A stretch of 64,000 bases of DNA from Psammoneis japonica (taxonomy: Eukaryota): positions 62,001 to 126,000 of the forward strand of contig QPGO01000091.1 in the NCBI GenBank assembly GCA_008632985.1. The letters are read 5' to 3'. Position numbers and translations under genes: made by a program. Under the pieces are notes generated by a model. The model saw only the letters and a program-made list of their open reading frames with translations, ran no database searches and was not told where the DNA came from. The first letter of the stretch is position 1, and each line of letters starts with the position of its first letter. Shown here in pieces: positions 1-64,000 of this stretch.

Positions 1-65
1 AGGAACTCCGTCTTGTAAAGGCAAAGCTTGAAAGTGCATTAACAAGGAACAAGGAGGCAGAAGCT

Positions 66-1552
66 GTGATGGAGATCAAGTGTGGTGAACTCCGAATTGC
101 ACTCGAAACATCAGACAAGGAGAAAGAGAAACACAAGAAGCAAGCCATCCAGAACATGGAGAATCTCATGGCGACAAAAACAATTCTCTCTCATGATGAT
201 CTAAAGCCTGGAGGCTTGTTGGGGGGGTTTGTTGGGGACTGCACCTGCTTTCCTGCATTTAAATGCAACGAAGCCTTCCTGGACTTTCTTGGTCATGGCG
301 AAGCATGCGATCCCGCGACGGCTTGTGTGAGAACATCAGACGGCACTCCAGGGTCAGCTGGGAAGAAAGGAACGGCAAATCGTGAGAGAGACAGAGCAGT
401 GCAGGAGAGTGGCAATGAGTCAGATTTCTGTGTGCCGCTGGATGATTCAATGGGCGATGGTGAAAATTTTGAGAACTTGACCGAGGATGAAAATGTGGAC
501 CCGAAGCATGGCGGCAGCCGCGAGGGCAGTGGGAAGAAATGGCTCTTGTCTTGGAAGATGGAGTGGCTTGTCTACAATGTGCGCGCTCATTGCGGATTTA
601 CCATGCGACAAATTTGTCCTTTGTTTGGCATGGGGGCACCGGGTCTAGTCTCTGACATGGCACATGGTTGGGCGAACCTGTTGAACGATGCACTCGCTCG
701 CCTCTTTCCAACACCAACACGGAGTCAAATGTTGCGAGCACATCCTGTGAGTGTGATTCGCAAATTTGGTCATGCCCTCATCTTCATGCTTCTAGACGCA
801 ACTGAAGAAGGTGCCCAAAATGCATCAATGAAAACAATGAACTCTGCGTTGTTTTCGGCATGCAAGCATGGATCAACTGTAAAGTGGCTAGTGGGTTCAG
901 ATCCAATTGGAACAACATGGCACAAGTCGACACCAAGAGGACACCCTGGTGGCATCAGTGACCCGGCACAGACAATGGTGACAAAGATTCTTGATCAAGT
1001 TCCGTTTGGGCATGCAGTTGAAGTCGACAAAGGATTCCTGACAGACAACGACTGTGCCATGAAAGGCATCATTTGCACTCGTCCTCAGAAGAAACTGGAC
1101 AACCAAATGCAGCAATCGAAGGCGGACACGGCTTTGACGCAGAAAGTTGGCAAAACAAGAATCCCAACAGAACAAGCCAATGGACAAATGAAACAGTCCA
1201 CTCATTTTTCAACGACAAGATGAAGTTGCTGCAACTTGGATTGGCGGACGTCATGTTCCGTGTCGGATGTCTCGCGCAGAACTTCAAGGTTGGTTTCATT
1301 CAGGAGCAGGATGGAAGGAACGACCAAGAGACTGGGAGGCCTTGTTGTGCAGAGATTCGACATTGCGGAGGGGAAGACAGTGGATCAGTGGACGTGAGAC
1401 CCAATGTTGAGCTTCGGGGAACGGAAAAGGAGATCGAGCGGTGGCAAGAGATTCGAGAAAAAAATGAGGAAATGACCGATCTGGAAGTGTCCGAGAAAGT
1501 TCTAGCTGAGGATTGGCCAGCAAAGCTCAAGGGTGAACTAGACTCACTGTAA
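66..1552 (+). pseudogene. DDE transposase relic (DDE_Tnp_4, ISL2EU/IS5-Harbinger-like), frameshifted near 1205
   Basis: Motif order LDATE...FSA(C)KHGSTVKWLVG.DP.G...G(H)PGGISD...VEVDKGF...RIP.EQANG.MK matches the DDE_Tnp_4 core. The C-terminus continues in ORF 1073-1552. Only 1 Tyr in 385 aa, and positions expected to be Tyr read as Cys/His. Confidence 0.85.
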
Positions 1553-2090
1553 TGTTTGTGATGGTGTGACATTTAGTTCTCCGAATCGGCACCCAGATGT
1601 CGCGACGATCCCGCAGTTGTGCGCCAAAATCCCAGCGCGTTTTGCTCAAGCAGGTGTCACTTCAAAAAGATTTAAAATTATGACACAATCAACAGCTGGA
1701 ACATCATCTACAGAACAAGAGCTTTCTGATGATGTTGCTTTTATTTCCATGCCCCCAACAGATCCGAATTCTCATCCACATGTCCTGCCGACCCCGCACT
1801 TGCGCGCCACAAAATCCCAGTGCGTTTTGCTCGAGCAGGCATTGCTTCAGCAAAAACTGGAATTACAGCACAATCAATGGCAATGACATCATCTGAGGAA
1901 ATGACTGATCTGGAAGTGTCCGAGAAAGTTCTAGCTGAGGATTGGCCGGCAAAGCTCAAGGGTGAACTGGACTCACTGTGATGTTCATGATGGCGCAACA
2001 CTCAGTTCTGTGACCCCAGCAGATCCGAATCGGCATCCAGATGTCGCGATGATCCCGCAGTTGCACGCAAAAATCCTGGTGTGCAAACAA
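1465..2090. repeat. Local direct duplication of the transposase 3' end (about 1465-1655 vs 1894-2085), plus a third partial copy near 1760-1840
   Basis: tgaggaaatgac(c/t)gatctggaagtgtccgagaaagttctagctgaggattggcc occurs twice. A ccgaat...ccc gca.ttg...aaaatcc unit occurs three times. Confidence 0.9.
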
Positions 2091-2214
2091 ATGCAAGTGT
2101 GCCGGTGTCCAAATGAACCGGGGTCTGCCGGTTGCTGAGGTTGGTGAAGGACGAGAATTTCGCTTTTTTGTCGAGTCCTCCAGGGAGCTGCTTCAGCAGC
2201 CCTTTGACACCCAT
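2002..2214 (-). pseudogene. N-terminal fragment of an XPG/FEN1/EXO1-family 5' nuclease
   Basis: MGVKGLLKQL...PVHLDTGTLAF resembles the XPG_N start (MGIxGL...xxIDxS). It is truncated by the duplication. Confidence 0.55.
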
Positions 2215-2524
2215 TCTGAGTGGCCATTTTTGCTTGTGTGTCCGTGTGTGGCAACTTATGTGACAAGAACGACATGGTGAATGCTGCCGCTGCGATGACT
2301 GCTGCAGTGAAAAAATCGAAATGATTTTCAGCTCAAATCCGCTTGACGTACAGTCTGTCTGTCGAACTTGAAATGAAGAAATCGTCGCCCGTTCGTTCGA
2401 TCGAATGAATCATACATCATCATGGCGTCGGGCGGTTCGTCCGGCGGTCGTCACTCGTGTAGCCTTCGCGCGCAACAATCGCGCTCACTTGCCACCCTGC
2501 CTGCGGGCGGCCGCGCGGCGGCGG

Positions 2525-2637
2525 CAGAGGTGCATAAATCGTCTGTTGTCGCCCGATGCGCGCAAACGCGAATTGTGCGCGCGCTGAGTGTGCGAATGCG
2601 CGTGTGCGAACGACAACAGACGATTTGTGCACCTCTG
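2525..2637. mobile_element. Small MITE-like element with 27-bp terminal inverted repeats
   Basis: cagaggtgcataaatcgtctgttgtcg (2525-2551) pairs with cgacaacagacgatttgtgcacctctg (2611-2637), with 1 mismatch. No clear TSD. Confidence 0.6.
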
Positions 2638-4161
2638 GCCTCACGGTGTTTCAGAGCGGCATTGGCTTTGTAGAAATGATTTTTTGTGCCAGCGTAGAAA
2701 TCTACACACATTTCTGGCACACAAAATTCATGCCGACATCAACCTTTTTGTGATCTTTCGACAATGGCGGCGTTCTCGGTTCGCAGCTGTTGCGCCACTG
2801 ACACCTCGTCAATTGTCGCAAAACCTGCAGCATGTTGCTCGTCACCCTCTTCTCAGTTCATTTTTTCCTCTGACATTGCATCTTCTTTGGTCACAATCTT
2901 GAATTTCGATGGCATCAACACAAGGTGAAAATCCAAAGCGGGTGCGAGTTGGTTGTTGGTTTTTAACCCCGCGTTTTCATTTTAAATGCCCACCTGAACA
3001 GCATTTTGCCTTCTCTTTCACTTGATCCCCCAGGGTGTCATTGTTTCGAGCTGCAGTCATCCGGGGAGCCGTTTGCTGAGGCCATGAGCCATGAAGCTTC
3101 TGTTGAAATCTTTCTGTTGGGTGGAGATCACTAAACACGGTGACTGCCCTGTTGGGGTGGACACTCCGATTCGTTTCAAACATTGCCAAAGGAATGAAAC
3201 AAGTCACCCAGTTTCCGTATTTCCTGTTGGAGACTCGAATGAGCAAGCCACACTTGCTAACACCGCGGTCCACTTCGAAGGCAAGATCAAAACATCTGAC
3301 TCTGCTTGTTTGTCTCGTGGAATGAGATGTCTTCTTTAGACAGCTCGAATTTAGAGCCAATAGAAAAATGTAAAAAACACATTAGAACGCCCCATTAACA
3401 TCACAATAGTTTCGTTTTAGAGATGGGAAGGAGCGCCAACCATCAATGGCAGCTCAGCAGCATCAAAGCCATCGGAGCGCGCTCGGTTTCAGAGCTGAGA
3501 TCTGCGTGAATCCATCATTTCGTAAAGAGCATAAAACAGCACCACAACTCATGGACTCATGGGTGATTGATTTACATCAGAAGCCTTTTTCACAACAGTC
3601 ACTGGAAAGGCATAAGACGATGCGATCATCGTCAATCCAGGGTGAGTTCACCGATTTTTGTGATCGAGTGTTCTCTTTGTGACGTCACGTACTAGAAAAT
3701 GTCGTAAAGTCTACACAGAAAACGGAACACCAATTTGAAGCTGCTACTTCGTGGCCAAAATAAGCTTACCATTTGGAGCACATCTAAGAAATGGTCACTC
3801 CAACGAGTAAAGTGAAGGGCTATGGAAGGTGCTCCAAATGCCACAGCAGTTTTGATGTTGTAGTAACATCTTGAAACTTGCAGCTCTGTGTCATTAAGTA
3901 GGATTCCGTAAAATCTACGTGTCATGCATGAAAGCAAGGAATTTTAAAATTATTCGAGGTCGATCGAGCTCCAAAATAATTAATTTTGATTTTAGTCGTA
4001 CAAGTCGAAGCTAATGCCACTCGCGCGTAGAACTGAAACACCGTGGCCTGCGGAACCCGAAGATCGCGGCGCAGGCAGCTGAGCGATCATCACACCATGA
4101 CGAATCCAAATCATCAACGAAACTCCAAGACGTATATGTTTCACTGCAAGTAGGAGGTATC

Positions 4162-4872
4162 ATGGATGATTCATTCGAAGGTGCAATTCATCAAAGTGTC
4201 AGTGATCATTTGGGACACCGACAAGAAGTGGATTCGATCCGCAGCGTGATGGAAGCGTTCAAGCAAGCTGCCAATTTGTGCACCATTCAGCACAAGAACA
4301 AGATTTACGCAACGGGAATGCGTCCAAATCTCAATCTAGCTAGGCCTACACCATCATTTTGGCTCGATTCTGAACAACACATTAGAATTGAACCTTTTGT
4401 AGAAAACAATCAGGCTCAATACTGTGCCATTGAAGATGTTTTAAAGTTGGAACTACACGTGGGTGCTCGAGTGGTATCCTTTTCCGACGCCACACGCACC
4501 AAGTGTGGTCGGTTCGTTGGAGGGTATATTGAATATTACTTTATTTTTGACGATCTCATTCCAGCGAATGGACCAAATAGTTCGGCATTACAAGGGAAAG
4601 TAGGGGTGCTCTATAGGGTTCAACCTGGACTTTTGGCGGACTTGAAACTGGATGCATCGTCTGATGAACGGAACGCTGCAACGCATCCTTCACGTTTCTC
4701 GACCAGTGACTTGCTAGGACCCGTATCATTTACACAAATTTCCTTTATGGCAATGTATGAAACCGGTGAATCTAGCAGCAGTGAATATGATAGTGAGGAG
4801 GACGAAGGCAGCAGTGAATCATCTCAATCTGATAGTGAGGATGACGAAGTCATCGAAGAGAATGAAACCTAG
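4162..4872 (+). CDS. Hypothetical protein with acidic C-terminal tail, copy 1 of a duplicated pair
   Basis: 236-aa ORF with normal composition. It is a paralogue of 11738-12385, sharing FKQAAN.CTIQHKNKIYATGMRP and DASSDERNAATHPSRFSTSDLL. Confidence 0.65.
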   Translation: MDDSFEGAIHQSVSDHLGHRQEVDSIRSVMEAFKQAANLCTIQHKNKIYATGMRPNLNLARPTPSFWLDSEQHIRIEPFVENNQAQYCAIEDVLKLELHVGARVVSFSDATRTKCGRFVGGYIEYYFIFDDLIPANGPNSSALQGKVGVLYRVQPGLLADLKLDASSDERNAATHPSRFSTSDLLGPVSFTQISFMAMYETGESSSSEYDSEEDEGSSESSQSDSEDDEVIEENET

Positions 4873-5529
4873 AGAGCACCCAATTCTACCAGTCGATCAT
4901 GCATTGTTTCAAAGAGGGGTTGCAACTTAAAACTTAAAGAAAAAAATCTACATTTTCTAACATGATAAGCTGAACAGAACGGGGACACAATTCGCACGCA
5001 TTCATCTCGACTACCCAATAGAAACGACCGAATTGAAGCATGCCATATGCATGGAGGCTAGCCGAAAGAATTGGTGGCGTCACAAGTGGGCTTGAGAAGT
5101 TCTCTCGCCAAAGCTGCTGCTCTAGATGCCACCGATGCAAATCGTCCTGACACTGTGAGTTCCTTGAATGAACTGTTCTGGGCACTGGAGAACATCAACG
5201 GCTCCACTCGGAACCGGGCCATGAGGTGATGTCTTTGGCGGGATTTTAAGCAATCAAGACCCGGATTCCCCAAATGCACTGATCCAATTGCACGCGGAAG
5301 TGAGCACAAAAAAACGCTTGAATGCATTCAAGAAGAAGCCAGAGAGTTGGATCTGATTGTTTGTCATTGGTGTGAGAAGAATGTGATGAACTGCTGCCCT
5401 TGCAAGATGCTGCACCAGCAGTGGGCTGCTGCTGCTGCATCCAGTGCTGATGCAATGATTGTCAAGTCCATGTGTTGAAGCAAGAATTTTTAGGCTGGTG
5501 CAGCAACATGGGAGTGTTTGAGCATTGCT

Positions 5530-8500
5530 GTTTCCTGGTGCAACAATGTCCCATGAGTGTGTGGGCAAGAATTGCTCGGCAATGACAAGCTGCAATTTGC
5601 AGCCAGTTTGCTGCTCAGAACTCAGAAATCATTGAAACTTGTTGCACACAAAGTTGATGTGAAATGTGAAGCATTCCAAAGAGTGTCACACAGAACATCC
5701 ACATTCCCTCACATCTTGTCAGTGCACCCCCTCTTGACAAACCAAGAGGCATTTGGCCATGATTGACTCCTTGCTTGTTGTCATGCTGCAAAATCTGCTT
5801 GGTTGTTGCACCCAAAAACTCTGCAAATGATGTTGCCCAATCTGCCAAAACTGACAGACCAAGCACAGAGAATTTTTGTGCATCGCCACATTGTTTGTGG
5901 TTCTGTGAGGTGCTTGGGACAAGAGATTTCACAAGTGCTGCACCCGCCTGTCATCATTTTGGGTTGGGTTGTTCACAGCCCTTCTTGTGGATATCAGCTG
6001 GGTGTGCACATCTGCATGACCTGACCAATGAAAAGAGATGCTTCTGTCCATTGCACCAACGAACATTTTTGAAGCACTTGGGCAGGGGTGCAGCAGCCAA
6101 GCTCATGATTTCTGGTGCAACTGGGCAGTGTGCTCAGCATGCTGATGGCAACAAAGCCCAGCTGCCAACTGCTGTTCATTTGTGACAGACCTTGGCTGGT
6201 AGCCCAATGTTGTTTGCACACTCCATTGGCTTCTTCTGAGCAGTTGACTCTCCATGTGCTGCCCCATGTTAGCATGAAACAATGCCAAAAACAAGTTGTT
6301 GCACTGAGCGGCTCCAGCTGACCAATGTGCCCTCACTGCCACCACACTCATCAGCTCTGTTGTGTGCTCCAATCCATTTTCTCATGCTGCAAATGAAGCA
6401 CACCTGGAGACACCACCAATGTGGCTGCTGCATGTCCAAATTTCTGGCACGATGTTGCTGTTGTTTCAGGGCCAACCACAGCAGTGCACCACATGTGCAC
6501 AAACAAAACTCACACAGTTGAAACAGAATGAGCCATTCTCTTGCATCTTTCATCAACACTCTCATCTGCATTGCAACACCAAGAAAGACATGCTGCAGCA
6601 AGGCAGTGGCAGCAAAGCACTTGTGAAAGTGCTGCTGGCCTTGTGCAAATTTGAGTGGGCTGATGCTGGGTGCAACTGCCACTTTGTTGTTGTTTTGCTT
6701 CATGTTTTGAACACAGAAATGCACACAAATTTGGACTTCATGCCAAATGGCACAAAACTCTCCCAGCTTGTTGTCCAGTTCATTTCAGGCATGCTGGCAC
6801 AGAGCCTTGTGCAACTCTGCCCCAACACACATTTGCACGCAAGTGTGCCACAATGACTTGGGGGGGCTCCAGAGTGTGCACTCATGGAAATCTGGCCAAA
6901 ACTCCCAAATGTGCTGATCAAACAGACTCTGTAGCACAAATTCTGCCCAAATTCTTTGGCCAGCAGCTGGCCAGCATCTGGCCAGAGATGTCCCCCAGCC
7001 CCATCACGCCCAAAGATGCAAGATCTTCCAACATCAAAGCAGTGCACAATGGCGTCAAGCATCTTCCCATTTTTGTGCTTGCTGCAGGAGTGTTGTTCCT
7101 GCACCCAGTTGGCTTGTGTGGCTCTCCCAGATTGTTTTGGTGCAAGGAGATGTTTGTTTTGTCATGAGCAGAGACATGGAGCGACAAATCATTGTTGCAC
7201 ACAAAAGCAACATTCTCCAGTTTGTGCTGACTTGTGGCTTGTTTGTTGCCACCAGAGTGAAGTTGCTGGCATGTGGTGCAGCCAGCTTGCCACCCTCCAA
7301 TTGTCTCATCAGCATTGTCAGGCCACCAGCACATTTGACCTTGAAGCTGACCTTCCAAAGCAAGGTGACATCCTTTGTCAAAACATTTAAAAAAAAGCAT
7401 GTCAGAATGAGGATCTGTTTTGGAGAAGAACACTTGCATCTGCAATGAGTCAATCATTGCTGCTGTGACCCATCACTTGAGAGGCAACCCGAACATCCAA
7501 CAACAGAGTTGCACAACAGCAATGCCAGCTTTCCAGCAGCATGTGTCATGGTGCAAGTTGAACACCAGCCCAGGGCATGGTTCATGCACCACCACCTGAG
7601 GACAGCACGGGCATGGGTGTGCTTGATCATGTGTCATGCGTTGCCCCCCAGGGTTCAGTTTTTGAGCCAAAGTGTCTGCTCTGCACCTCATCTCTGAACT
7701 TTGCACCTCCACATGGGATGTGCACATGGGCTGCCAATGCCTTTCAATCTGCAGCAGTTGAGTGCTTTCATGAGCAGAACCCTGTGCCCTGTCTTGTGCT
7801 CAGATTCAAAGTCTTGAGATCAGCTCTTGGATTCCCATGTGAGAGCTCAAAGCCAAGAAACTCTTCCAGCCATGCCAGTTTTGTGACAGTCTTGGCCACT
7901 TCCTTGGCACATCAAAGCAACTGTTTCAAGTTGCTGAACCCAGTGTGTTGCTTTGCTTCTTTGCTGCTGGGTGCAAGAGCTTGCAGCAACAATGTTGGGG
8001 AGATGGGTGTGGCATTTCAGCACCCATTGTTGCTGTGATCCCAGAGAGTCTGTCATTGGCTGCTCCTGCACAGATTGTTCTCAGTTGCTGTGGTTGACTC
8101 CTTCTCTTTCATTTTTGCCACTCAAGTCAGAGTGGAGAGTTTTGACTCTTCTGTGTGTTTGTTGTTTTTGCATGATGCAAGACCTCTTGTCAAGAACTGT
8201 CTCCATTGGATGTGTGGTCTTTGCAGGGGCATTGTGGCTTTTCTCTGCAACTTGGACAGGAGCTTGAAATGGTGGGGCTGTTGCAGTCTTTTTGATGGCT
8301 GTGGTTCTTTGTCTTTGAACAGCTCCATTGGATTTTTTCATTTCCTGAGATCCTTGCTTTTGCAAAAAGACCACAGTCAAGGTGTTGTGTCCATTCTCAT
8401 CATTGGAGTGCTTTCTGCCAGTGCATGTCATCTGCTTTTTTTCTGCTGGCTTTTCTTTTGACAATGGCGGTGGCAGGTTTGGCACATGAGACAACGTTGA

Positions 8501-11500
8501 CTGTTGTTGTTGTCATGAGTGTGGTCATTGTCATCATTGTCATTGTTGTCATTGTCATGCTGTCATTGTTGTTGTTGTTGTTGTTGTTGTTTGGTGGCAT
8601 GGCATTTGTGCTGCCAGATGGTCATTGTTTGCTGGCAGTTAGAGCTGTTGCTTTTTTCTGCAATTGATCACCATCATCCCCATTTTTGGCTTTGGCACTC
8701 TTGCCCTTTCCTCTCCTCATGACAGTTTCACCCTCTGGCAGCAGCAACAACATGAGCTTCTTTGCTTTTTCCAGCGGTTTTTGGTGGTGTTCTGCACACC
8801 ACAGCCTCACCACTGCTGTGCACTTCCATCAGCAGCTTGCTCATGATGCAATCAAAATCCCACTGGGTTGTTCTTGCTGGCAGAAGCAATGCAGCACAAA
8901 TGACTGAGATGAGTTTCTTCTGCCCAAACAAGCATGACACAGCATTGCATCAAGAACTCCCTTGCCATGACTTGGCCCTCTTCTTCAGCTGCAGCTGTGT
9001 CCTTGAGAATGTTCAGCATTTCATTGGGACAGTGCTCACAATCTACATTTCCACACCCAATGTGTTGAACTTGCATCAAACAGCGTCTTGTGCAGCCAAA
9101 GAACCTGGGTGCAGAAGGCCTTTTCTCTTGCACTTTCTGCCCTTTCTTCCAAAGTCAAGATTGCACTTCACTTTCTCCTTCCTCAACATCTGATGTGCCT
9201 GCCTGAAAGCAATGCCCACATGCACTCAATGCACAAGGTTTGACATCCTTCTAAAGACTCTTTGCTGCTGGGTTCACTCATCAAACAAAATTGACAAATC
9301 ATTGCAACACAGACTCCACATTTGTGCACTCAGTGTCCAAAAAGTGGGAGATGAGTTGGCACTGAGCAACCTTTGCAGACAGATGCATTTGGTCCTTTGA
9401 CAATCTCAGCTTCAAAGCTGGTGAGTTCTTTGTTGAATCCATCCACCCCAACTCCAAGGGGGTTTTGCAACATGTGTCCATTGCTTGTTTTCTCACATGC
9501 AAGAAAAGCCACCACAACCACAGTCCAAATTTTGCAGCTTCAAATTAGAGCCATTCTTGCAGCTGACTTGACATCTTTCACAACGATGCTGCCCATGCTG
9601 GCTTTGCCATTTGGTCCAATGCACATTGAAAGAAAGATGGAATCTCCTGACATCAACCAGTCAACTTCTGCATCAATGGCCAACTTTGCAACACAAGAAC
9701 CCAATTGAGCTGGTGTCAGCACTTCAAATGAAACAAGTCCCTTGTTTGCAAAGTGATGCAATGAACGAATGTTTGCATCTTTGTTGCAAAGCAGCCTGTT
9801 GGCAACTGCAGCCACTTCATTGCATTCATCAACCTGCGTGTCTTTTTTTGAAATTTGTTCACTTGTGCAGTGTGTTTGGCTGCATGGTGGTTGTTCTCAT
9901 CTGACAGCCAGAGATTGCATGTCTCAGCCCACATGACAATGGGATGCATCACTTTGTTTGCTGTCTCTGCATGCCAACAACAAGATCTTTGCTTGGGTGG
10001 GTGTTGTGCAACTTGGTTGATGTTGTGCACAACATGCCAATTGACCAGAAAATTGGACAAGACATGAGACATTTGTTCAGCGACAGCACTGTCTCTGGTG
10101 AGTGTGATGATGTGTCATGTGCGCACTTGCACCCAACAAGATTTGCACCTGTTGCACACTTCACATGACACCCTGGCTGTTGCATGACACCAGTTGCTGC
10201 TTTGTCAACATTTCACAGCATGTCTGCATTCTGACTGGCAACAGCAGCTTTGTGCTTCATGAGAAACATTGCCAAATCACCCAGGGCAGGGCTCCTCTGT
10301 CTGCTGCACTGGACTTTGTCTTGAGATGACAAGCAGATGGGTGGGGTGATGCTGCTGGGGGATGAAAGAGTGAAAGCAATTTGCACACAAATGCAGAATA
10401 AATGGCATGTCCATTCATTGGCACAATGTGGGATGTGAGTCATTCTCAGGTTGGTTTTTGAATTGAAGTGAAAACTGCAGAGTGAGGCTGAAAAGCTCGC
10501 GCATGTGCACTCCACACAAAACTGTGTGGTGTGCCAAACACAAGACTCACTGACAAGCTGCCCATCTTGCACTGCTCTGCATTTTGTCAAACTTCAGCCT
10601 GGTCATTGCTGCAGCATGCACTCACTGGGCATGATTGTTCTGGACCCAAACCATCACCACTGAGACAGTGTAAAAAGTCCACAAAGGCTGGATTTTGTTG
10701 AGAGTTTCACAACTTGTGCATTTGGCAGATGCCTGACAGAAGCACATCAAGGGCAGTGCCACTCTGCCTGCCCCCCCCCGCCCCCTGTCAAAATGGCACC
10801 ATCAGCTGTGCAATGATCATGTCCTCCTCTTAAGAAAAGGCGGGGCACCTCCCAGAATGACCCCAGAGGTCATTCCCTCATTGTCAGACAAGGCTTTCCC
10901 CCCAACTCTGCCTCATCATGGATGCCCCCAGCAACCAAGCCCTTGGCATTGCTCAAATGACTCAAACAGAAGCATGCACATCAAGTGCAGCAGCAAAGTG
11001 CCAGCAAACACATCATGATCCCCAGCTTGAGCCGAGCCACAGAAAACGTCATTGCCAAACACCCGTTGTGGGTTCATCAAGTGCAGCAGCAAAGTGACAC
11101 ATGTGTGACATCCCCCTCTTCCTTGGCACACATGATCAAGCTTGCACCCAATCACAAGGAAAACCTTGTCATCAAGCACCCAGCTTAAAAAAAGTTGGAA
11201 ATGAGAAAAAGAGAGGGAGCTTTGGCAGCTTCTGACCAGGTGTGGTGTTCCCTGGGTGTCATCATGAAACATGCAAGATGCAAAGATCTGATCATTGTGT
11301 GTGTGTCTGCAGTGTGTCATGCTTGTGCTTGTGAACAAGAAGCCCAACACATGACAGTTGGGCATGGACAAATCATGAACTGCAGAGTTTCGCTGCAAAA
11401 GTGCCAAACAAGAATCTCACAACATTTGAGTTGAGTTCAGCTCCCATCTCCTGTCTCAACAAAGTGTTGCTGGAAAAGTGCGAGAAGAAGAGGGAAAAGA

Positions 11501-11600
11501 TTTCACAGACTGCCCAAATGCTGCTTTTTGGCAAGATTGACCCAAGCATTTGCTGGGGGATCACTGTGGTGCAAATGAGGTCAACGAATTTTTCGCCACC
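5530..11600 (-). mobile_element. Heavily mutated repeat or DNA-element relic encoding an XPG/FEN1-like nuclease (about 9300-10200)
   Basis: TA and CG are almost absent. Minus-strand fragments read AKLAIDAEVDWLMSGDS (XPG I-region-like), NPLGVGVDGF (H3TH-like) and KCATGANLVGCK (possible N-domain). Termini are not identifiable. Confidence 0.5.
8495..8592. repeat. (TTG)n/(TCATTG)n microsatellite
   Basis: gtcattgtcatcattgtcattg...ttgttgttgttgttg is visible directly. Confidence 0.85.
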
Positions 11601-11737
11601 GTCCGTGTTTGATCCGCTAGAGCGAGAGCCTCTGAGCGGAACATAATAATGTTATTCGCCCAAAGTTTTGGAGTTTGGGAATACTCGTATTTCGAAATAC
11701 TCCAAGATACGCAACAGTGTCACTGCAAGTAGGTATC

Positions 11738-12385: not shown

Positions 12386-12834
12386 AGAGCACCCAATTGT
12401 ACGAGGCGATCATGCGTTGTTTCAAAGAGGGGGTTGTTGCAACTTAAAAACTTGTCGCAGAAAAAAATTCTCGATTTTCTAGCGTGATAAGCTAAGAAGA
12501 ACGGGGACACAATTCGCAAGTACCGCATTCATCTTGACCCAATAGAAAAGACTGAATTGAAGCATAACATATGTATAGAGGCTAGCCGAAATAATTGGTG
12601 GCGTCACAAGTTGGCTTGAGAAGTTGTATCGTCAAAGCTGCTGCTCAATGTCACCGATGCAAATCGTCCTGAAAATGTGAGTTGCTTGAATGAACTGTTC
12701 AAGGCACCGGAACATGTCAACTGCTAGCTGTGTCCACTCGGAACCGGAGGTGGTCATTGTCGGGGGTTTTACGCAAGACCCGGATTCCACTGCACTCTAG
12801 TCCAACTACGCATGGAATCAAGCACCACAGAAAT

Positions 12835-52459: not shown

Positions 52460-55400
52460 ACATTATTTTTTGTGACGGACACACACAAGCGGTCAACAAG
52501 CAGTGAGCAGGCTGATTTTGTGGGGCTACACCATTTGGCTCAGATCGCGTTTCTGCATGAGGCTTTGCAAAACAGGGAGCACAAAAAACAATTTCACAGA
52601 AGAATGTGGAAATGTGTGTGCACACAATCATTTTTGTGCGTGAGCGATCAAAAACTGTCAGTGTCGCACCCCAGCACTGCAAGCTCCCACCCAGGGCTGG
52701 AGTGTGTCGAGCAGGCAACTGGTGCCCCCCATTGATCCCAGTGTTTTCATCCAAATTATCAGCAGATTCAAGAGGAGCAGGAGATGAATGCAAAAGAAAG
52801 GTGTCAAATGTCGGCATCATCTGGCTCTGCTGCTGCTTCACAAGCAGAGTGGCACAAACTTTTGGGAGCGACAGCAGCTGTGTGCTTCTTTGCCTTTTTC
52901 GCTGCTGTTTCAAGCTCAGTGGCAGAACATTGGAAATTGCAGCACTCTTGTTGGCATCATCTGATTGCACGGCAACTGTGCTCAGCTCCTCCACTGTTGT
53001 GCACTCTCACTGTTGCCTCCCTTGTCCAAGGATGCACCACCTCAGCTCTGCTTCCTGGCAGCATTCCCTGAAATGCTTGAGCATTGAAGAGCCATCATTG
53101 TTCCAAAGAGGCTGTGCCACAGGCAAACATGTTGCATGTTCCCACTGCAAATCACAAAATCAGCCATTGTCTGCTGGCTTGGCTTGGGTTTTTCTCATCC
53201 TTTGGAGCATTGTTGTGCCCTCCTCCACATTTGCTTTGTGGCCACCTGAATTGGCAAAGGGATGGCCCACCTTGTGCTGAAGGTCCAGGTGCTGCTTCAC
53301 AGCAATGCTGCTCAACACACAAATCTTGGCAGTTGTCACTGTGCAAACTTTGCTGCAGTTGATGCCTCTGACTGCCCCTCGCCCAACTTGTCCACTTTGA
53401 ACTTTTGGCAACATCTTTTTCAATGTGGGAGAAATTGAAATCATCTGTGCTGACATTGTCATTTGTCCATTGAAGAAATTGACCACACCTCCTGCCATTT
53501 GATCCTTTAACAAGCTCAACTTGGTCCCACAGAAGGGAGCAAATGCCTTTGCCAAAGTCAAATGCCTGGCATGTGTGCGCAGCCTTGGGTTGTTTCAGCA
53601 ACCCCTGCAAATGCTTCAAACACATCATGTGTGAAATTCTTCCAGAAATGCCCAAATGCTGGGTCCATGGCATCATGCTCATCATGCGCACACATGTGAT
53701 GCCAAATGGAAAAATCTGGAGAGACCAGCTTGACATCCAGCCATTGTTGCCATGCGCGCGCTTTTGCACAACAAACTCCAGCACCAGAGCACACACAACA
53801 ACTTTGTGTGCAACATTTGTGCTCCTGCCAGCAACAACAAGAAATCTTGGATGAGACAGCAAAGGGGTGGTGGGTGGTGGATGCAATGTTGCACCATGAC
53901 AGTTGCAAACTTGTGTCAATCACCAGCCCAAAGCTGGTTTTCCCAATGTCTTTGTCTTGCCAGCTGTCCAGCTCATCCAGGAACAAATCTTATGGGCTTC
54001 AAAGTGTCAGCACCCCACTGGACAAACAATGCAGACCACCCTTGTGCTGCTCAACTTGAGCTGAAAAAGATGTGCTCAGCTTGGAAAAGCAACACTTGGC
54101 ACACTTTTTTAATCCTCTGCACCCAAAAAGCTCATCAAGGCAATTGCCCATGGAGGCATGACATGGATGTCACCCATGATCTTGATGGACCAAAAAATGC
54201 ACTCAAACTGGTCTTCAACAGCTGCACACCAAGCACATGTCTTGCTGGATTCATCATGGCAATTGCTCTTGTCATTGATGCAACGATCCATGTCCTGGTT
54301 GCAAGCGATGCTGGTGCTGCACAGCAGGGGAATGCAAGTGATGCATTTTGCCTGGACAATCGTCTCTGGTGCATGGAAACTCATCTGCCATTTGGACAGC
54401 AGCAAGAAGTTGTTGTTTTCTTCCACCAGGTGTTCCTCTTCACACTCTGCTGTCAGATTGACCAGCCTGTCAGAGTGGGGCTCCTGTGCTCCACGCATGC
54501 TCTGTGTGCATGCACATCACACCACACTCCAACTTTGACTCTGTTGCAGCACCACAAGTGGAGTCCACTGCTCCACATCTGTCCCAGATTGCTGGTCTTC
54601 TGGGTGGGACCCCACAGCTCTGCTGGGTCCATGAGGATGACTGCAAGAGGAAGCAGCTGTGATTGAAAAGTCCACACTTGAGTTGGAGGCACACTGGATG
54701 ATGGGAAGCTCAGAGCAACTGACTGTGAGCAGGACAGCACAGCCCACTGGTGGCCCAAAATTTGCAACACAGATCATGTGCTCAAGTCCAGACTCAAGTC
54801 AAGTTTCAAGCCAAGCTTGTCAACCCCAATCTTCTCTCCTGATCCCAGCCTGCCCAAGTTCCACCTTGACCCCCTGCTCATCACCATGGTTCTTGCCAGC
54901 CAACAGTCCATTGATGGCCTCAATCATGTGATTGGCACTGTTTTGGCTCAGCCTGTCAACAGCCCTCTTTGTTCTGCTTTGGCTGTCAACACCCTTGTCA
55001 GGTGTGAGGATCTGCTCTCCCTTGCTCCCTGCCAGGCCCGGCTCCAGCTCCAGGTGAATCCCATCACTGGCCCATTTTTGCATTTGGCACAATGAACTCC
55101 TTCTTTTTTCCAAATCGAAGGGTGAGTGCACACAAAACTTTTGTTTTTTATGTGCACTCACCTTTTTATTTTCAAAATGATTTGAAGAAAATGTGCTGAA
55201 CTGCACAGAAAATCAAACTCTTGTGTGATGGATTGTGGACAACATGGGGCTGGAACAGGCCACCAGTGCCATTTTGACAACCTCCAGTGCAGCAGAAATG
55301 GTGACACCCTTGCACCCCTGCCTCATCATCACAAGGCTCTGCCAGTGGCTTTCTCATCAGTTTCAACACTTTTGAAGGGGTTGCTCAAGTGCACCTGTCA

Positions 55401-57848
55401 GCAGTGACTTCACTTTGCTCACCCATGAAGAGTTCCAAGAGCATTGTCCTGGTGTCCAGGTTGTGTGACATCTCTGCTTTCTAATGTTGCTGCTCGTTGC
55501 TCCCCCTTCACCCAAAAAGCCACATTGCACCACCAGCCACTTGGTCTGCACCCCAACAGACCTGTCATGTGCTGTGGGCCACTCTCAATGTGCTCTAAAA
55601 ACAACATGTCTATCCTGTGCCATGATCCATTGACTGAGCCTTCTGTGTGCCCCAACAGGCCTGTCCCATGCTGTCAGTCAATCTGACCTTGCACCTTCCT
55701 CTGCAAATGGCAGCACACTTGCTGAGGAATGGCCACCATGCCTCCCCAAGTGTCGACATGCCCTGTCCTTTGAGCTGCACTCTCCGGCTGGTCTTGGCCT
55801 TGCCCAGGCTTGTGCCTTCTGAGATGTGGATGTGCCCCATCCTCCAGGTTGCACTTCATTCTTTCCAGGTTGCACTTCATTTGGGGTGCCCTCCCAGAGT
55901 CATCCAGGGCAATCATCCTTGAGCCCTCCAAGCCCTGAGCTGCCAATTTTCATGCATCAGCATCTGCCAACCTCTTCAGGCACCAGCCAATCTTTGTTTG
56001 GAGAGTGACAGTCAAGTCAATTTGCCAATGATGACTGACAGCATTGCTTTGTTTTCCCTGACCTCCTGCCACCAATGCTGCTGCCACCACCAACATTTCT
56101 GCACAGGACAATGACTTGTGTTTTTTGCACCTGCAGATGGGAAGTTGTCTCCATTTTTCATTGTCCATCACCAAATCCTGTTCAGCATGCAGGGCACCTG
56201 ATTTGTCAGATGGGGAGATCACAAGGCCCAAAAAGCAGCTTCGCTGTGTTGGAACTTGAGTCATGCAAAGGTCCACATCTGAGCCTCACAATCTAAAAGT
56301 TAGAAAGATTCAAGCTGTGAAAGAATCAAGCTGTGGCATCAAGCTTGGATTGGAGAATGGAGAGATCATGGCCAAGCTGCACTCCTTTCTCATGCTTCAC
56401 CTTGCCACAAGTGCACACATTTGATCTCTGGGCTGAATCTGCATGCTGTGCCTTCTCAAGAAGCTTTTGATTGACTGAATTTTCAAGAAACAAGGCCCCA
56501 TGGACCAAAATGCTGTTTGTGGTTCTTCTGGGTTTGTTGCATCCCACACTCCAAGTTGTGTGCAAGCATCATGCCGCCTTGTGCAAGAAGCACTGCTCCA
56601 GCACCCTTTTTTGCCCCATGCTGTTTCTGCTCTCATGTGTCCTGTGTCCCAGAACTTTGGTCCCAGGGCTTTTGCTGATTCCATCATTGATGTGGTTCCT
56701 TTGGGGCTCCTTCCAGCAAAATGGGAAGTGACAGAAAAGATTAAACAGGGTTTCAGCTGTGCACAATTTGTCAAGCCCTGCGTTTGTTTGGTTGTCACAC
56801 ACAGGCTTGTGTGCTCTTGTTTCTGCTGGCATTTGTGTTGTGCATGCCATGCAGTTCTGCTCTTGAACCACACAGCTCACATGAAATGAACAGCATCTCT
56901 GTCAGCTCCTGTGATGGTCTCCAGATGGAGACTCATCTGCCATTTGGACAAGAACAGCAAGGAGTTGTCATTTTCTTCTGCCAGCAGATTCCTCTTTGCA
57001 CTCTCCTGTTGATGCAAAACAACTGGTGCAGGTTTTCTGCGTGCAGCAGTCAAAATCCAAAAAAAGCCCTCTGAGCTGTCTTCCACAAAAATTCTGCAAA
57101 CACATCTTTCTGGACACAACTGTGACACCAAGGGCACTGACACACTTTGCAACTCAATTGCACCACTCAGCAGCAAAAATTGTGAGCACAAGATGCCTGT
57201 GTGACTGACCACCAAAACAATGGAAGCGCAAGCAGCCAAGCGGACAACATGTTGGGGGGAGAACATGCACTCAAAGAATTTGGAAGTGTCTTTCCAGGAT
57301 TTCTGGCTGGTGCCCTCTTTCTCCTGCATGGCTCATGTGAGCCATGGCAGAGCCACCATGTGGGGCTCAGCACAAAGAAACAGCACAGGTTTGTCAAGCT
57401 CTGCTTTGACTTTCCTGCGCTGGGCGTGCAAAAAAATCCAACAGAGCCATGTTGGACCTGCACCCCCCCTCTGATGCAAAAACAGAGCAACAGTGTTTTG
57501 TGGTGGGTTTTTGTGGATTGTGTGTGGCACATTTTTTGGTGTGAAAGAGGCAGAGCACAGCTGGTGCCACAAAAGGGCAAAACAACAAACTGCAAAAGGG
57601 TGCGCTGCAGCAAAATGAGCTTTGTGCTGCAATGAAAATTTGGGGGAAAGTCTGTCAGATTTTTGCTTGCACAAAATGCATGATGATGGAAGAAGGGTGG
57701 ACACAACATGCGACCTCAGCACGTGCATCTGCAGCACTGCATCAGAGGCCTCTGCCCAGAGAGGGCCTTGCTGCGCAGGCCTTTGCTCTCTCTCTGCTCT
57801 CCAGCCAGAGAGCACCAGAGCCACTCTCTGGCTGGAGAGAGCAGAGAG

Positions 57849-57883
<35 letters not shown>

Positions 57884-57905
57884 TCTGCTGGCTCTCTCTG
57901 CCACT
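52460..57905. mobile_element. Unidentified hypermutated repeat relic (TA- and CG-depleted) with an internal duplicated segment
   Basis: Composition as in the other mutated domains. About 54370-54450 resembles about 56925-57010 (actcatctgccatttggaca). No domain recognised. Confidence 0.45.
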
Positions 57906-58228
57906 CTAGCTAGCTACAGCAGAGTGCTTCTCGAGAGTAGAGAGAAGCAGAGAGAGTGCTGTAGGGAGCGCGCGTTTCTTCACACATCGTCATTCGTGAC
58001 GGTGCGTTGTTTCAAAAATTTGAACTCTTGCGAGTCGTGTGTGATCATACCGTAACTGCAGTACGGGGCTGTACCGTACATCCTTACATAATGGAGCGTT
58101 GAAAGACAAAAATTCCCATTCTTGAGAAGTCGTGCCACCACCGACAAATGATCATCCCGTCCCTTGGACGAAACACCTGAACAACTTCCCACTTTTTTGG
58201 TTTTTGACCATTTGTAAGGACCGGCATT

Positions 58229-59594
58229 ATGCGTTTCGCCGTCCTTTGTGCCCTCCTTCTTGCTGTCTCGGCACGTTCTGCTACCGCAGACAGAACCACA
58301 TCGACGGAACCAGACGATGGCATTTCTCGTCACCGTTCACGCCTTCGAAGGGAGTTAAGGGTTTCGTCGGACGAGGAAGGCGCAAACTCCATTAAAGAAA
58401 AGAAGAGTAAAACTGCCAAGAAATCCTCGAAACTCAGGAAAAGTCAAGACAGCTATGTAGAAGAAATAGACATATCTCCTGAAGCAATCCCTGGAACCAC
58501 CAACGACGTCTCTGCCATCGACTTCGCTCAACAAGATGCGACAGTCGATGAGGATGCTGACGCAGTAGTTGATAAGGAAACCAACGTCCCTCCCTTTGCA
58601 GCTCAACCAGAGACCGACGTGAACGATTTTGTTCTACCGGAAGCATTGTCCAATGAGGACGCCAATCTTTGGGACGCATTTGACTTTGAAACATTAAGCA
58701 TGAGCATCACAGGAAGCCTGACTGCAGCTCCTTCCCCGGCTCCGACTACCTCTCCAACTCCGAGTCCGACTCCTTCGCCCACACAGAGTCCACCGCCGCC
58801 TCCTCCTCCTCCNNNNNNNNNNNNNNNNNNNNNNNNNNNNNNNNNNNNNNNNNNNNNNNNNNNNNNNNNNNNNNNNNNNNNNNNNNNNNNNNNNNNNNNN
58901 NNNNNNNNNNNNNNNNNNNNNNNNNNNNNNNNNNNNNNNNNNNNNNNNNNNNNNNNNNNNNNNNNNNNNNNNNNNNNNNNNNNNNNNNNNNNNNNNNNNN
59001 NNNNNNNNNNNNNNNNNNNNNNNNNNNNNNNNNNNNNNNNNNNNNNNNNNNNNNNNNNNNNNNNNNNNNNNNNNNNNNNNNNNNNNNNNNNCGCCGCCGC
59101 CACCGCCGCCTCCTACTGAACCTCCTACCTCGGCTCCGACGCCAGATCCTGGAACGTGCAGTGACGCCGACAAAGCTCTTTGCGATGATGCCTATAAGGC
59201 AATGACGGGGTTAAGTAACAACCGCGCCAAATGTTGCCCCGCAACTAGCGGATGCGTCAAGGATGCTTGGGCAGCTCAGGCCACAGTAACCTGCAGCACC
59301 GAATGTGGCGTGGGTTGTATCTCTGGCGAAACTATAGGAAACAACCCAGAGTATCCTTCGACCTATTGTGTCATTTCAGATGTTGTGATCGAAAACATGC
59401 CTTCGTGTGAAGACGTGAAGGCGGCAGCCATGACTGGCCTAATTTGCCAAAATTCTGGTGATCCTCTTTGTTGCGACGGAGGCTTCGATTGCACCACTTC
59501 AGCAACCTACGGACCAACGTCTGCACCGCAGGTTTGCGTCAACCCTCCCAGGGCTACGCCAAATACCAGTCCAATAGATGACTGCCCTCCTTAA
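58229..59594 (+). CDS. Secreted Pro/Thr-rich protein with Cys-rich C-terminal domain, candidate cell-wall protein; spans an assembly gap
   Basis: Signal peptide, RRELR, Lys/Ser cluster, acidic region, PTPS repeats and poly-Pro. After the gap, PPPTEPPTSAPTPDPGTC is in frame with ORF 59202-59594. Confidence 0.75.
58813..59091. other. Assembly gap (N run) within a poly-proline repeat
   Basis: N run flanked by (CCG/CCT)n. Confidence 0.99.
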
Positions 59595-61558: not shown

Positions 61559-62047
61559 AGAATCGAGTCAGTCATGTCTCTTTGGATCTGAAATCTGCGC
61601 GGTTCTCGTCCGTGGCTCATGAAGAAGTGTTCTGTTCATCTGTCGCGACACTTTGCGTTGATATTCATACTCCGGTGGGGCACAGATTGAGGACCAATCC
61701 GGACCCGAACCGATGTCTTTTCACGCCGTTGCATAACCAAGGATGTTCATCATACGCTGCTAATACCGCAACTAGTTACTGTACGACAGGTGCAACATAC
61801 GCTACATACGATATACAGTCGAATCTGCTGCGTGCATGCTTGCATCGCCGCAGTATCCCGGACACAATGGAAGAGAACAATGTTCAATGCGTTGATGAAG
61901 TTCAGATTTTAAATATGTTGTCAATAGATCTCGCACTAAGATGCAAGTTATCGGGCTTGTGCAATGTGCTGTTGCCTGCTAGCTTGTATGCTCTTTCTAT
62001 ACAGCAGAGACGACCAAAGCCTTTGATCCCACAATTGATTGAAAAAT

Positions 62048-63300
62048 CTACACGATGGCGAGAGTTTGTCGTTCTGTACGGCGTCGCAGTCCAATTTCTT
62101 TACGTCTGTAGCTTTCGGATTCATCCAGACCGTTAAAATCGGCACTGCCCGTAACATTGTCAACATAACCATGACTAGTGGGAGTGCAGCCGCACTGAGC
62201 ATTTTGCGATCCACACCCAAAGCAAAACTGGCCTTCGCAGCGACACTTCAGTTTGAGGCCAACGGACCAAAGTTGCACTCCGTTTCTGCATCTTCGACAT
62301 TGTTTTATGTTGAGCTGAGCCAATGACTCCTCATCTCTGCAGTTTTGAACTGGAAGGAGGATGTTTCTCCCTCCCAGCTTTTCTGCTCCCTCTGCTAGAT
62401 TGAACCAAACCTTGCCCTTTGCTGGCCTTGTTGTGCATGCTTGTCAATCCTCACACATTCTGTTCTCATGGTGTGGGCTGCAGCCACATTTGAGACATGC
62501 AACTCATTGATGCTGCTTGAAGCAATCCAATGTTGGGGGTCCATTGTTCCAAAATGTGATGTTGTTGTAATCTGGAGTGGGGCAGTGATGACAATCAGGA
62601 TGTTGCATTGCAAACAACAACTGGGAGCCCTTTTTTACCTTGACATGATCAGCTTTTTCAAGTGGTCTGCCTCACTTGTGATGATCTGCACATGACAAGT
62701 GGTCAACAGGCAGCAAATCAAGTCAGCCTTGTCACTTGCCTTCACCAATTTCATGCTTGAATGCAGCATTGGAAGCATGCAATGCTGAACAAATGCTGAT
62801 GTGCTGTCCCAAAAATGGGCAGTTGTGTGTTCATCATTGGCAAATTGCCCACTGTCACCAAGTCAGTGAACTCAGCAGTGCAACTCTCACAATTCTGGAA
62901 CCTGTTGATGCCACTCAACACTCTGTCTTGTCTGTGCACCAATTCTTGGCTGTCATGGCAGCATCCACTCACACTTTGTCAGAGCCAAGAATGCACTGTA
63001 ATGTTCACACACCTGGAGTGGGCATTGCAAACAGTGCTGCAGCATTGTCTCAATCAATCAACTTCTTTTCAGCAAGTGCCATGTTGGTCCCATGGTTGCT
63101 TGCACAATCGCTGTGTCCTTTGTGCACATTTTCACATTCATGGACATGAACAAATGCTCTGGGAGGAGAGAGCTGTGTGATCCATTGCACGTGCCGTTGG
63201 AAAATGAAATGTTTGATCATGTGAATGGAACATGCAGGCTAACACATGTGAACATTTGTAAAAACTTTACATTTCATTGGCATCTGCTAGAGAGCTCCTT
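62048..63300 (-). pseudogene. RBR (RING-IBR-RING) E3 ligase: intact 3' RING2, degraded 5' part
   Basis: IKQCRRCRNGV...LKCRCEGQFCFGCG (RING2) at 62048-62323. Upstream minus-strand fragments such as HCPTPDYNNITFW (IBR-like) contain stops and frameshifts. The 5' limit is approximate. Confidence 0.65.
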
Positions 63301-64000
63301 TGCACTTGTGTTTTGCCCACCTCTTTTTTCGTCATCTGGCTTTTGAAGATGCGCGCGGGTCTGATTCTTGAGCCCTGATTTTATTTTCTGTCTGTGATTC
63401 TTGGTTTCCAGTTTGGTCATGACAGATTGTCAAACAGCCAGAGCTGCTTTGTGCAGTCTTTGTGCAGCCACATTGTGCATGGGTCGCTGTTGAACACCCG
63501 GCTCATGCAGCCCAGCAGATCTTTCTGAGACTTGCTTCTCTCCGCTCTTTCTTGCTGGCTTGCATGCACATCATTGCTCTGTCACCAGTTTGCAAGAACT
63601 GGGTCCTTTGTGCTTGTCAATGCTGCTGTTGTTGCTGCAGCATGCTCATGACTGCAAGCAGCTCTTGTGTGCCTCATTGTCAAAGTGCTTTTTTAGCTGG
63701 AGCAGAGTGGAATTTTTTTCAGCCTCTTTCCTCTGGGCAGCCAAAACACTTCCAAGCACCCAATCCCAGTGCAGGGGAATTGAATTGCCATTGTTCAGCA
63801 CAAAAGAACCGGCAAGGACAATCATGAGAACATCCAAAGCGAATGTCTCAGTCACAAATTGTTGATGTCTGCGTTCATCGTGTCCTTCGGTTTGCCCTTC
63901 TGAACGGACGTGCGCGCAAAATTTCAAAATTTCGAATTGAATTAGCAATATTGTGTACGTATATATAATATTCAATCGTGCGATGTCGCAAAAATGTGAC

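Follow-up and report, generated by a model that had tools for sequence, protein, structure and literature searches.

TpA-depleted blocks in a Psammoneis japonica contig carry a signature like the TpA hypermutation of Bigelowiella natans

In the chlorarachniophyte Bigelowiella natans, the main text of a mutation-accumulation preprint (Mettrop et al., April 2026; bioRxiv 10.64898/2026.01.13.699255) reports that 231 of 302 nuclear mutations fell in two regions, that of an integrated giant virus and that of a virophage, that 230 of these 231 viral-insertion mutations were A->G/T->C, and that the GC-biased ones all lay at TpA. According to the same text, the new TpA mutations arose in bursts, in some lines only, at a rate of ~6e-7 per site per generation, or ~1000-fold background, the genome holds 124 TpA-poor, CpA+TpG-rich clusters, TpA-poor genes are enriched in DDE and reverse-transcriptase domains, and a homologue of ADAT2 is proposed as the enzyme (10.64898/2026.01.13.699255). 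Here we describe a 64,000-nt stretch of contig QPGO01000091.1 of Psammoneis japonica (hereafter the window, to which all our results refer) in which the dinucleotide TA is nearly absent from five discrete multi-kb blocks. The signature matches the TpA hypermutation of B. natans, and the kind of process is not new; it appears to be new for diatoms. In the literature searched, the B. natans preprint was the only account of TpA hypermutation and nothing comparable was found for diatoms, and the passages on mutable contexts in a Phaeodactylum tricornutum mutation-accumulation paper name CG, CC and TG and no TpA effect (PMC6604790). An earlier sequence-only reading of the window, which knew of no description of such a process in diatoms, therefore stands as far as diatoms are concerned, but not for the kind of process, which had already been measured in B. 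natans.

Over the entire window, the observed/expected (o/e) ratios were 0.39 for TA, 0.72 for CG, 1.39 for TG and 1.40 for CA. Analysis in 1-kb bins revealed that TA o/e was 0.02-0.19 within the five blocks versus 0.37-0.82 elsewhere, that TG and CA inside the blocks were about doubled (1.3-2.5), and that AA and TT (1.0-1.6) and AT (0.56-1.1) were little altered. As AA and TT are near normal, the loss of TA is specific to TpA. A TA o/e below 0.3 was found in 49 of the 124 1-kb windows of this stretch. Maps of TA positions placed the block borders at 5248-11617, 28252-36924, 52528-57906 and 62177-63942, with block 1 ending at ~3330 and its left border not placed, and at every border TA density switches within tens of bases. 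The blocks, which carry no strand, and the two copies of a tandem duplicate used below are as follows:

1-3330, no strand: block 1, a Harbinger/PIF DNA transposon in decay, poor in TA and normal in CG (31 TA and 168 CG in 1-3200).
5248-11617, no strand: block 2, TA- and CG-free, without a recognisable gene (15 TA, 40 CG, 790 TG and 752 CA in 6361 bp).
28252-31800, no strand: block 3a, TA-poor with CG present (12 TA, 136 CG); an open reading frame (ORF) of the AAA-ATPase family.
31801-33200, no strand: block 3b, TA- and CG-free, between two ORFs (3 TA and 8 CG in 1400 bp).
33201-35600, no strand: block 3c, TA-poor with normal CG (19 TA, 131 CG); an ankyrin-family ORF.
35601-36924, no strand: block 3d, where block 3 ends, TA-free and CG-poor (1 TA and 24 CG in 1250 bp); the next dense run of TA begins at 36925.
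52528-57906, no strand: block 4, TA- and CG-free, without a recognisable gene (12 TA, 35 CG, 604 TG and 599 CA in 5201 bp).
62177-63942, no strand: block 5, TA- and CG-poor, without a recognisable gene (11 TA and 10 CG in 1501 bp).
4122-5467, plus strand: duplicate copy 1, a gene-bearing tandem segment whose last ~200 bp lie within block 2.
11699-12932, plus strand: duplicate copy 2, with normal TA content, which stands in for the sequence before mutation.

For counting, the five blocks, which make up ~40% of the window, were split into eight sub-domains totalling 24,714 bp. These contained 104 TA versus ~988 expected from a baseline of 1467 TA in 36,686 bp of ordinary sequence of the window (Poisson log10 P ~ -284), and their GC content was 46.5-53.0%, versus 0.41-0.53 in 1-kb bins outside. 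Depletion is thus confined to discrete blocks embedded in normal sequence and, by the o/e ratios and the per-kb balance given below, it concerns TpA only, with CpA and TpG enriched, both as in Bigelowiella-type hypermutation. These measurements bear out the sequence-only reading, which had described by eye five TA-poor, TG/CA-rich multi-kb domains, normal use of TA outside them and runs of AA persisting within them; its estimate of a dozen to twenty TA in the second domain compares with 15 counted at 5260-11620, and the sliding-window check of TA, CG, TG and CA that it had suggested, run over the window, found discrete TA-poor domains. A scaffold gap of 279 N lies at 58813-59091, just to the right of block 4.

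The direction of change was polarised by four routes, namely three ORFs within the blocks and the tandem duplicate. The Harbinger ORF (3-1220, plus strand, cut by the left end of the window; Pfam DDE_Tnp_4, E=6e-11) has 51 homologues, the named ones being from Attheya, Cyclotella and Thalassiosira, and contains a single Tyr in 406 residues versus 1.3-4.4% in these homologues. With a column taken as conserved for this ORF when >=60% of homologues agree, Tyr was kept in 1 of 10 columns, as against 157 of 200 columns conserved for other residues (Fisher p=1.6e-5), and its replacements were His in four (CAT/CAC), Cys in one (TGC), and Arg, Gly, Ala and Phe in one each. Among 12 conserved Ile columns, four held Thr (ACA in three) and one held Met (ATG), the pattern that ATA->ACA/ATG predicts. 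The ankyrin ORF (33448-34722, minus strand; Ank_2, E=6.5e-6; 305 homologues at E<=1e-3) has 3 Tyr in 425 aa, set against a median of 2.6% in 150 homologous proteins, and kept conserved Tyr in 1 of 6 columns (Cys in three, His in one, Trp in one) versus 128 of 150 others (p=6e-4). When both ORFs were pooled, conserved Tyr columns held His or Cys at 9 of 16 and Tyr at 2 of 16, while other conserved residues were kept at 79-85%. The ATPase ORF of block 3a (29899-31641, minus strand; weak AAA_16/ATPase_2 Pfam matches) has no Tyr in 581 aa, and where a database protein 85% identical to it, P0069, has its three Tyr, the window has Cys, Cys and His. This family terminates at ..SNxV, and the window ORF reads on through TGG, as would be consistent with a TAG->TGG change. 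The ORF extends ~150 codons (152; 29899-30355, minus strand) beyond the usual end of the family. With TAA and TAG erased, TGA is the only stop left, and TA-free blocks consequently give long spurious ORFs in all frames.

The fourth route, the tandem duplicate, compares 4122-5467 with 11699-12932 at a raw identity of 78%, or ~88% after purine/pyrimidine recoding; the raw blastn match reached 11699-12788, and the recoded comparison extended it to 5467/12932. At the edge of the duplicate that lies in block 2 (5201-5500), the seven TA of copy 2 correspond to TG in four cases, CA in two and TC in one, with none kept, whereas upstream (4100-5200) 26 of 50 TA were kept and nine were TG/CA (p=8e-4 versus the edge). 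The duplicated segment (4015-5467 and 11636-12932, plus strand) brackets block 2, and the proteins that its copies encode share a ..SDHLGHRQEVDSIRS.. motif and belong to no Pfam family. Across these comparisons, in which polarisation is indirect and samples are small, changes were almost only A->G/T->C, which supports a reading in which change ran from TA to TG/CA and was confined to the domains. This is the A->G/T->C direction at TpA that the sequence-only reading had proposed, now backed by polarised protein and paralogue comparisons; the loss of Tyr that it had noted is likewise present, in ORFs that differ slightly in length from the 543 and 385 aa it gave.

The sub-domains fall into two classes by their CG content, a feature that the sequence-only reading had not stressed. 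CG o/e was 0.05-0.3 in five of them (5.3-11.6, 31.8-33.2, 35.6-36.85, 52.6-57.8 and 62.3-63.8 kb) and normal or near normal in three (1-3.2, 28.4-31.8 and 33.2-35.6 kb); in block 1, CG stood at 5.25% versus 5.36% in normal DNA while 76% of expected TA was gone. In the CG-free blocks the borders of CG and TA loss coincide within ~50-100 bp. The recognisable ORFs sit in the CG-keeping sub-domains, and the CG-free ones are without Pfam matches above cut-off. Deamination of 5-methylcytosine (5mC) leads from CG to the same end products, and the lowered CG and raised TG/CA of CpG decay are seen in the five CG-poor sub-domains; however, 5mC deamination cannot remove TA, the loss of which is left unaccounted for, and three sub-domains lost TA with little or no loss of CG. 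We infer that TA was lost either much faster than CpG decays or independently of CpG decay, and that the CG-free blocks may be older than the CG-keeping ones. Within the CG-free blocks, CpG survival by flank (strand-symmetrised tetranucleotides; R, purine; Y, pyrimidine) was ~8.5% at YCGR, ~14% at YCGY and ~19% at RCGY, which suggests that C after a pyrimidine decays faster at CpG. Fungal repeat-induced point mutation (RIP) likewise hypermutates in place, by dinucleotide-specific transitions; it disables DNA that is repeated or foreign and leaves sharp blocks of odd composition, which can spill into flanks. In contrast to what is found here, RIP changes CpA to TpA and so enriches TA, which in these blocks is depleted ~10-fold; it lowers GC, which in the sub-domains is unchanged or slightly raised; and it depends on duplication, while for block 2 a single copy is seen at >=85% likeness. 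That neither 5mC decay nor RIP explains the loss of TA, as had been argued from the letters, is upheld by the three sub-domains that lost TA with CG kept and by the enrichment of TA that RIP causes. GC-biased gene conversion was also considered and rejected, as it is not TpA-specific and the loss of CpG, a strong-to-weak change, co-occurs.

Surviving TA is not random with respect to context (chi2=82, df 9, p=6e-14). TTAA and CTAA/TTAG survive ~3x above expectation, CTAG is among the better-surviving contexts, and ATAC/GTAT, ATAT and GTAC survive at 0.07-0.13x expectation. RTAY, in which both A are followed by a pyrimidine, occurs 12.09 times per kb in normal DNA, 0.22 in CG-keeping and 0.06 in CG-free sub-domains; the corresponding values are 10.39, 1.89 and 0.57 for YTAY, in which one A is followed by each, and 7.39, 2.89 and 1.47 for YTAR, in which both are followed by a purine. 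When the two A of a site are treated as independent, the rate at T-A-Y is ~3-4x that at T-A-R. The gained dinucleotides were tallied in the same manner: at asymmetric sites the excess per kb was 6.3 for YTGY/RCAR, the product that this preference predicts, versus 3.0 for the alternative RTGR/YCAY in CG-keeping sub-domains and 18.0 versus 5.2 in CG-free ones, and per kb the sum of lost YTAY and lost YCGY equals that of gained YTGY and RTGR within ~1.5. These counts support a putative preference for T-A-Y. The two outcomes are evenly divided between the strands, RTGY:RCAY being 203:204 in block 2 and 158:150 in block 4, and a runs test on RTGY/RCAY gave |z| <1.5 in 8/8 sub-domains, the outcomes being randomly interleaved. 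Applied to all TG/CA, the runs test gave -2.8 in sub-domain D3c and -1.7 and -2.1 in two normal control regions. No strand-coordinated clusters were found in the eight sub-domains, a result whose power is diluted as about half of the TG/CA is original.

We next consider what the blocks contain. Block 1, which carries the Harbinger ORF, had a summed contig depth of 150-1160 in a public run (X1) versus ~56 for unique DNA and was covered by many X1 contigs 85-99% alike, which indicates a multicopy family. Its non-coding part contains direct repeats (1465-1632 versus 1894-2076, 83%; 1580-1709 versus 1763-1894, 73%), at which run X1 contigs show several length variants. Block 3 (28.3-36.9 kb) carries decayed, pseudogene-like members of two cellular-type families, AAA-ATPase and ankyrin; the nearest Atlas clusters of the ATPase family are eukaryotic, and no relative of it was found in the viral contigs searched. 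For the CG-free blocks, no transposon or viral Pfam signal rose above cut-off among 121 ORFs of at least 90 aa and 150 of 154 ORFs of 45-89 aa. Short ORFs of the blocks at 5.3-11.6 and 52.6-57.8 kb gave many sub-threshold zinc-finger-like hits (zf-TRM13_CCCH, DUF4379, ZZ, Zn_ribbon_recom), which probably reflect enrichment of Cys and His through TGY/CAY codons and not real domains. Block 2 had a depth of 57-77 versus 55-61 in its flanks in run X1, which makes it single-copy at >=85% likeness; with respect to the duplication that RIP requires, there is no second copy at least 85% alike, and older copies could have diverged further. Within the window, no homology between the TA-free blocks was found by blastn, tblastx or purine/pyrimidine-recoded blastn, in which matches of ~80 bits or less were treated as noise, and the repeat search gave only the tandem duplicate and short internal repeats. 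The stretch at 3336-4002 has a summed depth of ~690 versus ~56 for unique DNA in run X1, yet its TA is normal at 5-14 per 200 bp; not every repeat is thus TA-erased. The sequence-only reading had assigned the process to transposon chromatin, which fits block 1 alone (Harbinger DDE_Tnp_4, multicopy) and is not supported elsewhere, since block 3 carries cellular-type families, the CG-free blocks give no transposon signal and block 2 is single-copy.

The letters of the blocks were compared with run X1, which contains 88% of sampled words from 3500-13000. Its independently built contigs match block 2 with 19 differing letters in 6804, and those at 4856-6932 and 8601-11803 span both borders of the block. 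What these contigs exclude is error in assembly or polishing, and not all effects of sequencing. Over all run X1 contigs, 301 of 375 tallied differences were transitions, and among the 40 listed of 390 differences, six were TA<->TG/CA, eight were CG<->TG/CA and three were CA-versus-TG doubles at one dinucleotide (835/6, 2836/7 and 9868/9), as would arise from separate mutation of a single ancestral TA in two lineages. Block 2 differed from run X1 3.7x as often (19/6804) as its flanks did (6/7918; p=0.004), and this excess, together with the CA/TG doubles, is no more than a hint of new mutation in bursts.

The window shares with B. natans, as described in the preprint's main text, A->G/T->C change only at TpA, regional confinement, TpA-poor, CpA+TpG-rich clusters and DDE transposases among the targets. 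The two differ in several respects. The host is diatom-like (Stramenopila) here and a chlorarachniophyte (Rhizaria) there; TA o/e is 0.02-0.16 here, near saturation, versus a rho of 0.45 reported there for the viral region that is active; the window yielded no viral genes, its targets being a DNA transposon, members of two cellular-type families and DNA that could not be identified; five sub-domains here are overlain by CpG decay, and the preprint's main text does not mention CpG; and mutations were measured live there, while here the signature is read from sequence alone. The words 'diatom', 'trinucleotide' and 'context' do not occur in that main text, whose passages on 'motif' and 'strand' stop at TpA and are silent on strand balance. 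With these differences in view, we regard it as quite likely that the phenomenon is a real, in-place, TpA-specific hypermutation of DNA of the Bigelowiella kind. Such a process would convert A:T to G:C almost only at the palindromic TpA, leaving TG on one strand and CA on the other, and would act on both strands equally, site by site, on genomic duplex DNA, ~3-4x faster where a pyrimidine comes after the A (5'-T-A-Y-3' = 5'-R-T-A-3'). It would work in discrete regions whose edges do not track sequence-family borders, as in regional targeting of a chromatin- or silencing-domain-like kind, and to near saturation, with 82-99% of TA lost, while ordinary CpG->TpG/CpA decay would form a second, slower and separable layer, complete in blocks without recognisable genes. 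Strand symmetry, the presence of a DNA transposon and spread into the duplicated segment would point to action on genomic duplex DNA and not to editing of an RNA intermediate.

The likeliest candidate for the enzyme is a TadA/ADAT2-type adenine deaminase that would act on DNA and be brought to silenced or foreign sequence, although for this step on its own we would put the chance at somewhat below even. U or T precedes the target A in TadA/ADAT substrates (tRNA A34 after U33), and it is this T before the target A in the family's natural substrates that favours the type. Restriction by deaminases such as APOBEC3, ADAR and TadA/ADAT2 offers a parallel, as hypermutating base deamination in a short context with U/T before the target A in ADAR and TadA/ADAT; in contrast, APOBEC enzymes convert C to U, ADARs act on RNA and are, to our knowledge, known from animals only, and the strand symmetry seen here points to duplex DNA. 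We know of no natural chromatin-targeted DNA adenine deaminase. N6-methyladenine was considered as a cause and rejected, as its known eukaryotic motif is ApT, not TpA.

Several points weigh against this reading. Adenine- and thymine-targeted chemistry predict the same outcome at the palindromic TpA, so that sequence cannot separate them. The T-A-Y bias comes from unpolarised tetranucleotide counts with neighbouring genic DNA as baseline, and a T-A-Y bias in outcome is not visible in the few sites given by 12 polarised Tyr codons (RTAY to His in three and Cys in four; YTAY to His in three and Cys in two). Polarisation itself is indirect, consisting of protein homologues, one 200-bp edge with seven TA, and 40 listed of 390 differences. 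Run X1, for which no sequencing platform is recorded, may be the assembly's own sample and thus only partly independent. Of the five blocks, one alone is demonstrably mobile, and block 2 is single-copy at >=85% likeness, which leaves a role in defence against foreign DNA weakly grounded. Lastly, 35 metagenome loci with related Harbingers had TA o/e of 0.47-0.94, and 0/239 of their 1-kb windows were below 0.3; as Tyr and Ile formed part of the search patterns, mutated copies were less likely to be picked up, and this result is not to be read as absence in other diatoms.

The main alternative places the chemistry on thymine: a TET/JBP-type dioxygenase would oxidise T at TpA in silenced DNA to 5-hydroxymethyluracil (5hmU) or 5-formyluracil, and mispairing with G or faulty repair would then yield T->C. 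As the outcome at a palindromic TpA is the same, all of our sequence results fit this equally well. Two facts count in its favour: the base J of trypanosome telomeres lies, on both strands, at T with A as the next base, and A:T->G:C changes are promoted by 5-formyluracil. So too does the report that a dinoflagellate TET/JBP homologue makes 5hmU and helps to silence transposons (PMC11572971), as does work of the 1980s which, as recounted in PMC11071213, placed 5hmU preferentially at TA and TC in Crypthecodinium cohnii. On the other hand, the base-resolution mapping in Breviolum given in the latter paper yielded no motif (PMC11071213), TC is not depleted (o/e 1.08, a whole-window value), and 5hmU pairs normally with A. 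We consider thymine oxidation unlikely.

Loss of TA could also be a by-product of biased mismatch repair, in which a thymine-removing T:G glycosylase or endonuclease guarding methylated CpG in silenced domains would also turn replication T:G at TpA into C:G. Something of this sort occurs in E. coli and other enterobacteria, where very-short-patch repair depletes CTAG, TA in a short motif being lost to CA/TG through repair bias; that system differs in being bacterial, genome-wide, mild and limited to one tetranucleotide, while here every TA context is affected. Efficient T:G->C:G repair would suit the sub-domains that lost TA and kept CG, such as block 1, and the coincidence of TA and CG borders in the CG-free blocks fits as well, but the five sub-domains with CG o/e of 0.05-0.3 contradict efficient T:G repair, there is no known reason for strict TpA specificity, and TT and TC are not depleted. 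The bursts of 2-45 mutations per line that the B. natans preprint describes, moreover, look enzymatic rather than like a by-product of replication error. Biased repair is in our view quite improbable.

A technical origin, in which base-calling or assembly errors on modified DNA would write TA as TG/CA, draws on the fact that the platform of the assembly, like that of run X1, is not on record and that the window includes a scaffold gap. An artefact is nonetheless unlikely, indeed very improbable, since run X1, assembled independently from k-mers, has the same letters at an even depth of ~57-68 with both block 2 borders bridged, the Tyr states before mutation are seen in P0069, a separate database protein of the same family, and errors would neither turn a given site into CA in one copy but TG in another nor change 95-99% of sites yet spare neighbouring genes. 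Just as hard to credit is an intrinsic composition, whereby the blocks would have been horizontally acquired, or selected against TA, and TA-free from the outset. Four of the five blocks are without an identifiable origin, as this would allow, but Tyr content is normal in 51 transposases and 150 ankyrin proteins homologous to those of the blocks, the losses fall on conserved Tyr columns, the edge of a host-derived duplicate is affected, depletion covers both strands and non-coding DNA, and none of the 239 windows around related elements elsewhere is TA-poor. RNA-level A-to-I editing of retroelement transcripts by an ADAR-like enzyme, followed by reverse transcription, gains from the preference of ADAR for U before the edited A, which the preprint discusses (10.64898/2026.01.13.699255), but it is barely credible at all, as editing of one strand predicts TG on the sense strand only whereas TG and CA are equal and interleaved here, the sole identified element is a DNA transposon, and the mutated zone spreads into the flanking duplicated segment.

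Returning to TpA-specific hypermutation of duplex DNA, it is possible, if on the doubtful side, that diatoms and chlorarachniophytes, and perhaps the whole stramenopile-alveolate-rhizarian assemblage, share an enzymatic, TpA-erasing genome-defence pathway that would recognise silenced or invading chromatin domains and act at a T-A-Y motif on duplex DNA by means of a natural DNA adenine deaminase or thymine dioxygenase. If true, such a pathway would destroy Tyr codons, TAA/TAG stops and TATA-like signals and be a functional mirror image of fungal RIP, and, if it is the same as that of Bigelowiella, it would amount to a lineage-spanning means of disabling invading DNA in major ocean primary producers. 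A second, distantly related host would make the enzyme findable by comparative genomics, through genes common to hosts with the signature and absent elsewhere. The saturated blocks also give properties that ~230 mutation-accumulation events may not resolve, namely the extended T-A-Y context, strand equality, independence from CpG decay, and borders that are regional and not homology-based. A natural A:T->G:C editor of duplex DNA at a defined motif, if real, would be of interest to base-editing technology. For annotation, TA-free blocks, with hardly any TAA/TAG stops, yield long spurious ORFs, their Cys/His-rich translations mimic zinc fingers, and they conceal transposons from homology searches.

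The named homologues of genes in the window are all from diatoms (Thalassiosira, Cyclotella and Attheya), and the best match of a 1165-aa ORF is 57% identical. The window also contains a cluster of MYND-finger-related genes at 13565-17062 (minus strand), 26914-27759 (minus strand) and 40349-41770 (plus strand), with the domains DUF4470, zf-MYND, and zf-MYND plus MSS51_C, respectively; the DUF4470 protein has its distant homologues among MYND proteins of fungi. A second run, X2, listed as 'DNA?', gave no cover of block 2, and its contigs are spliced. One of them skips 18610-18702 and 19202-19333, with ends that read CT..AC on the plus strand (GT..AG on the minus strand), which indicates that run X2 behaves like RNA and that the two stretches are introns of a minus-strand gene.

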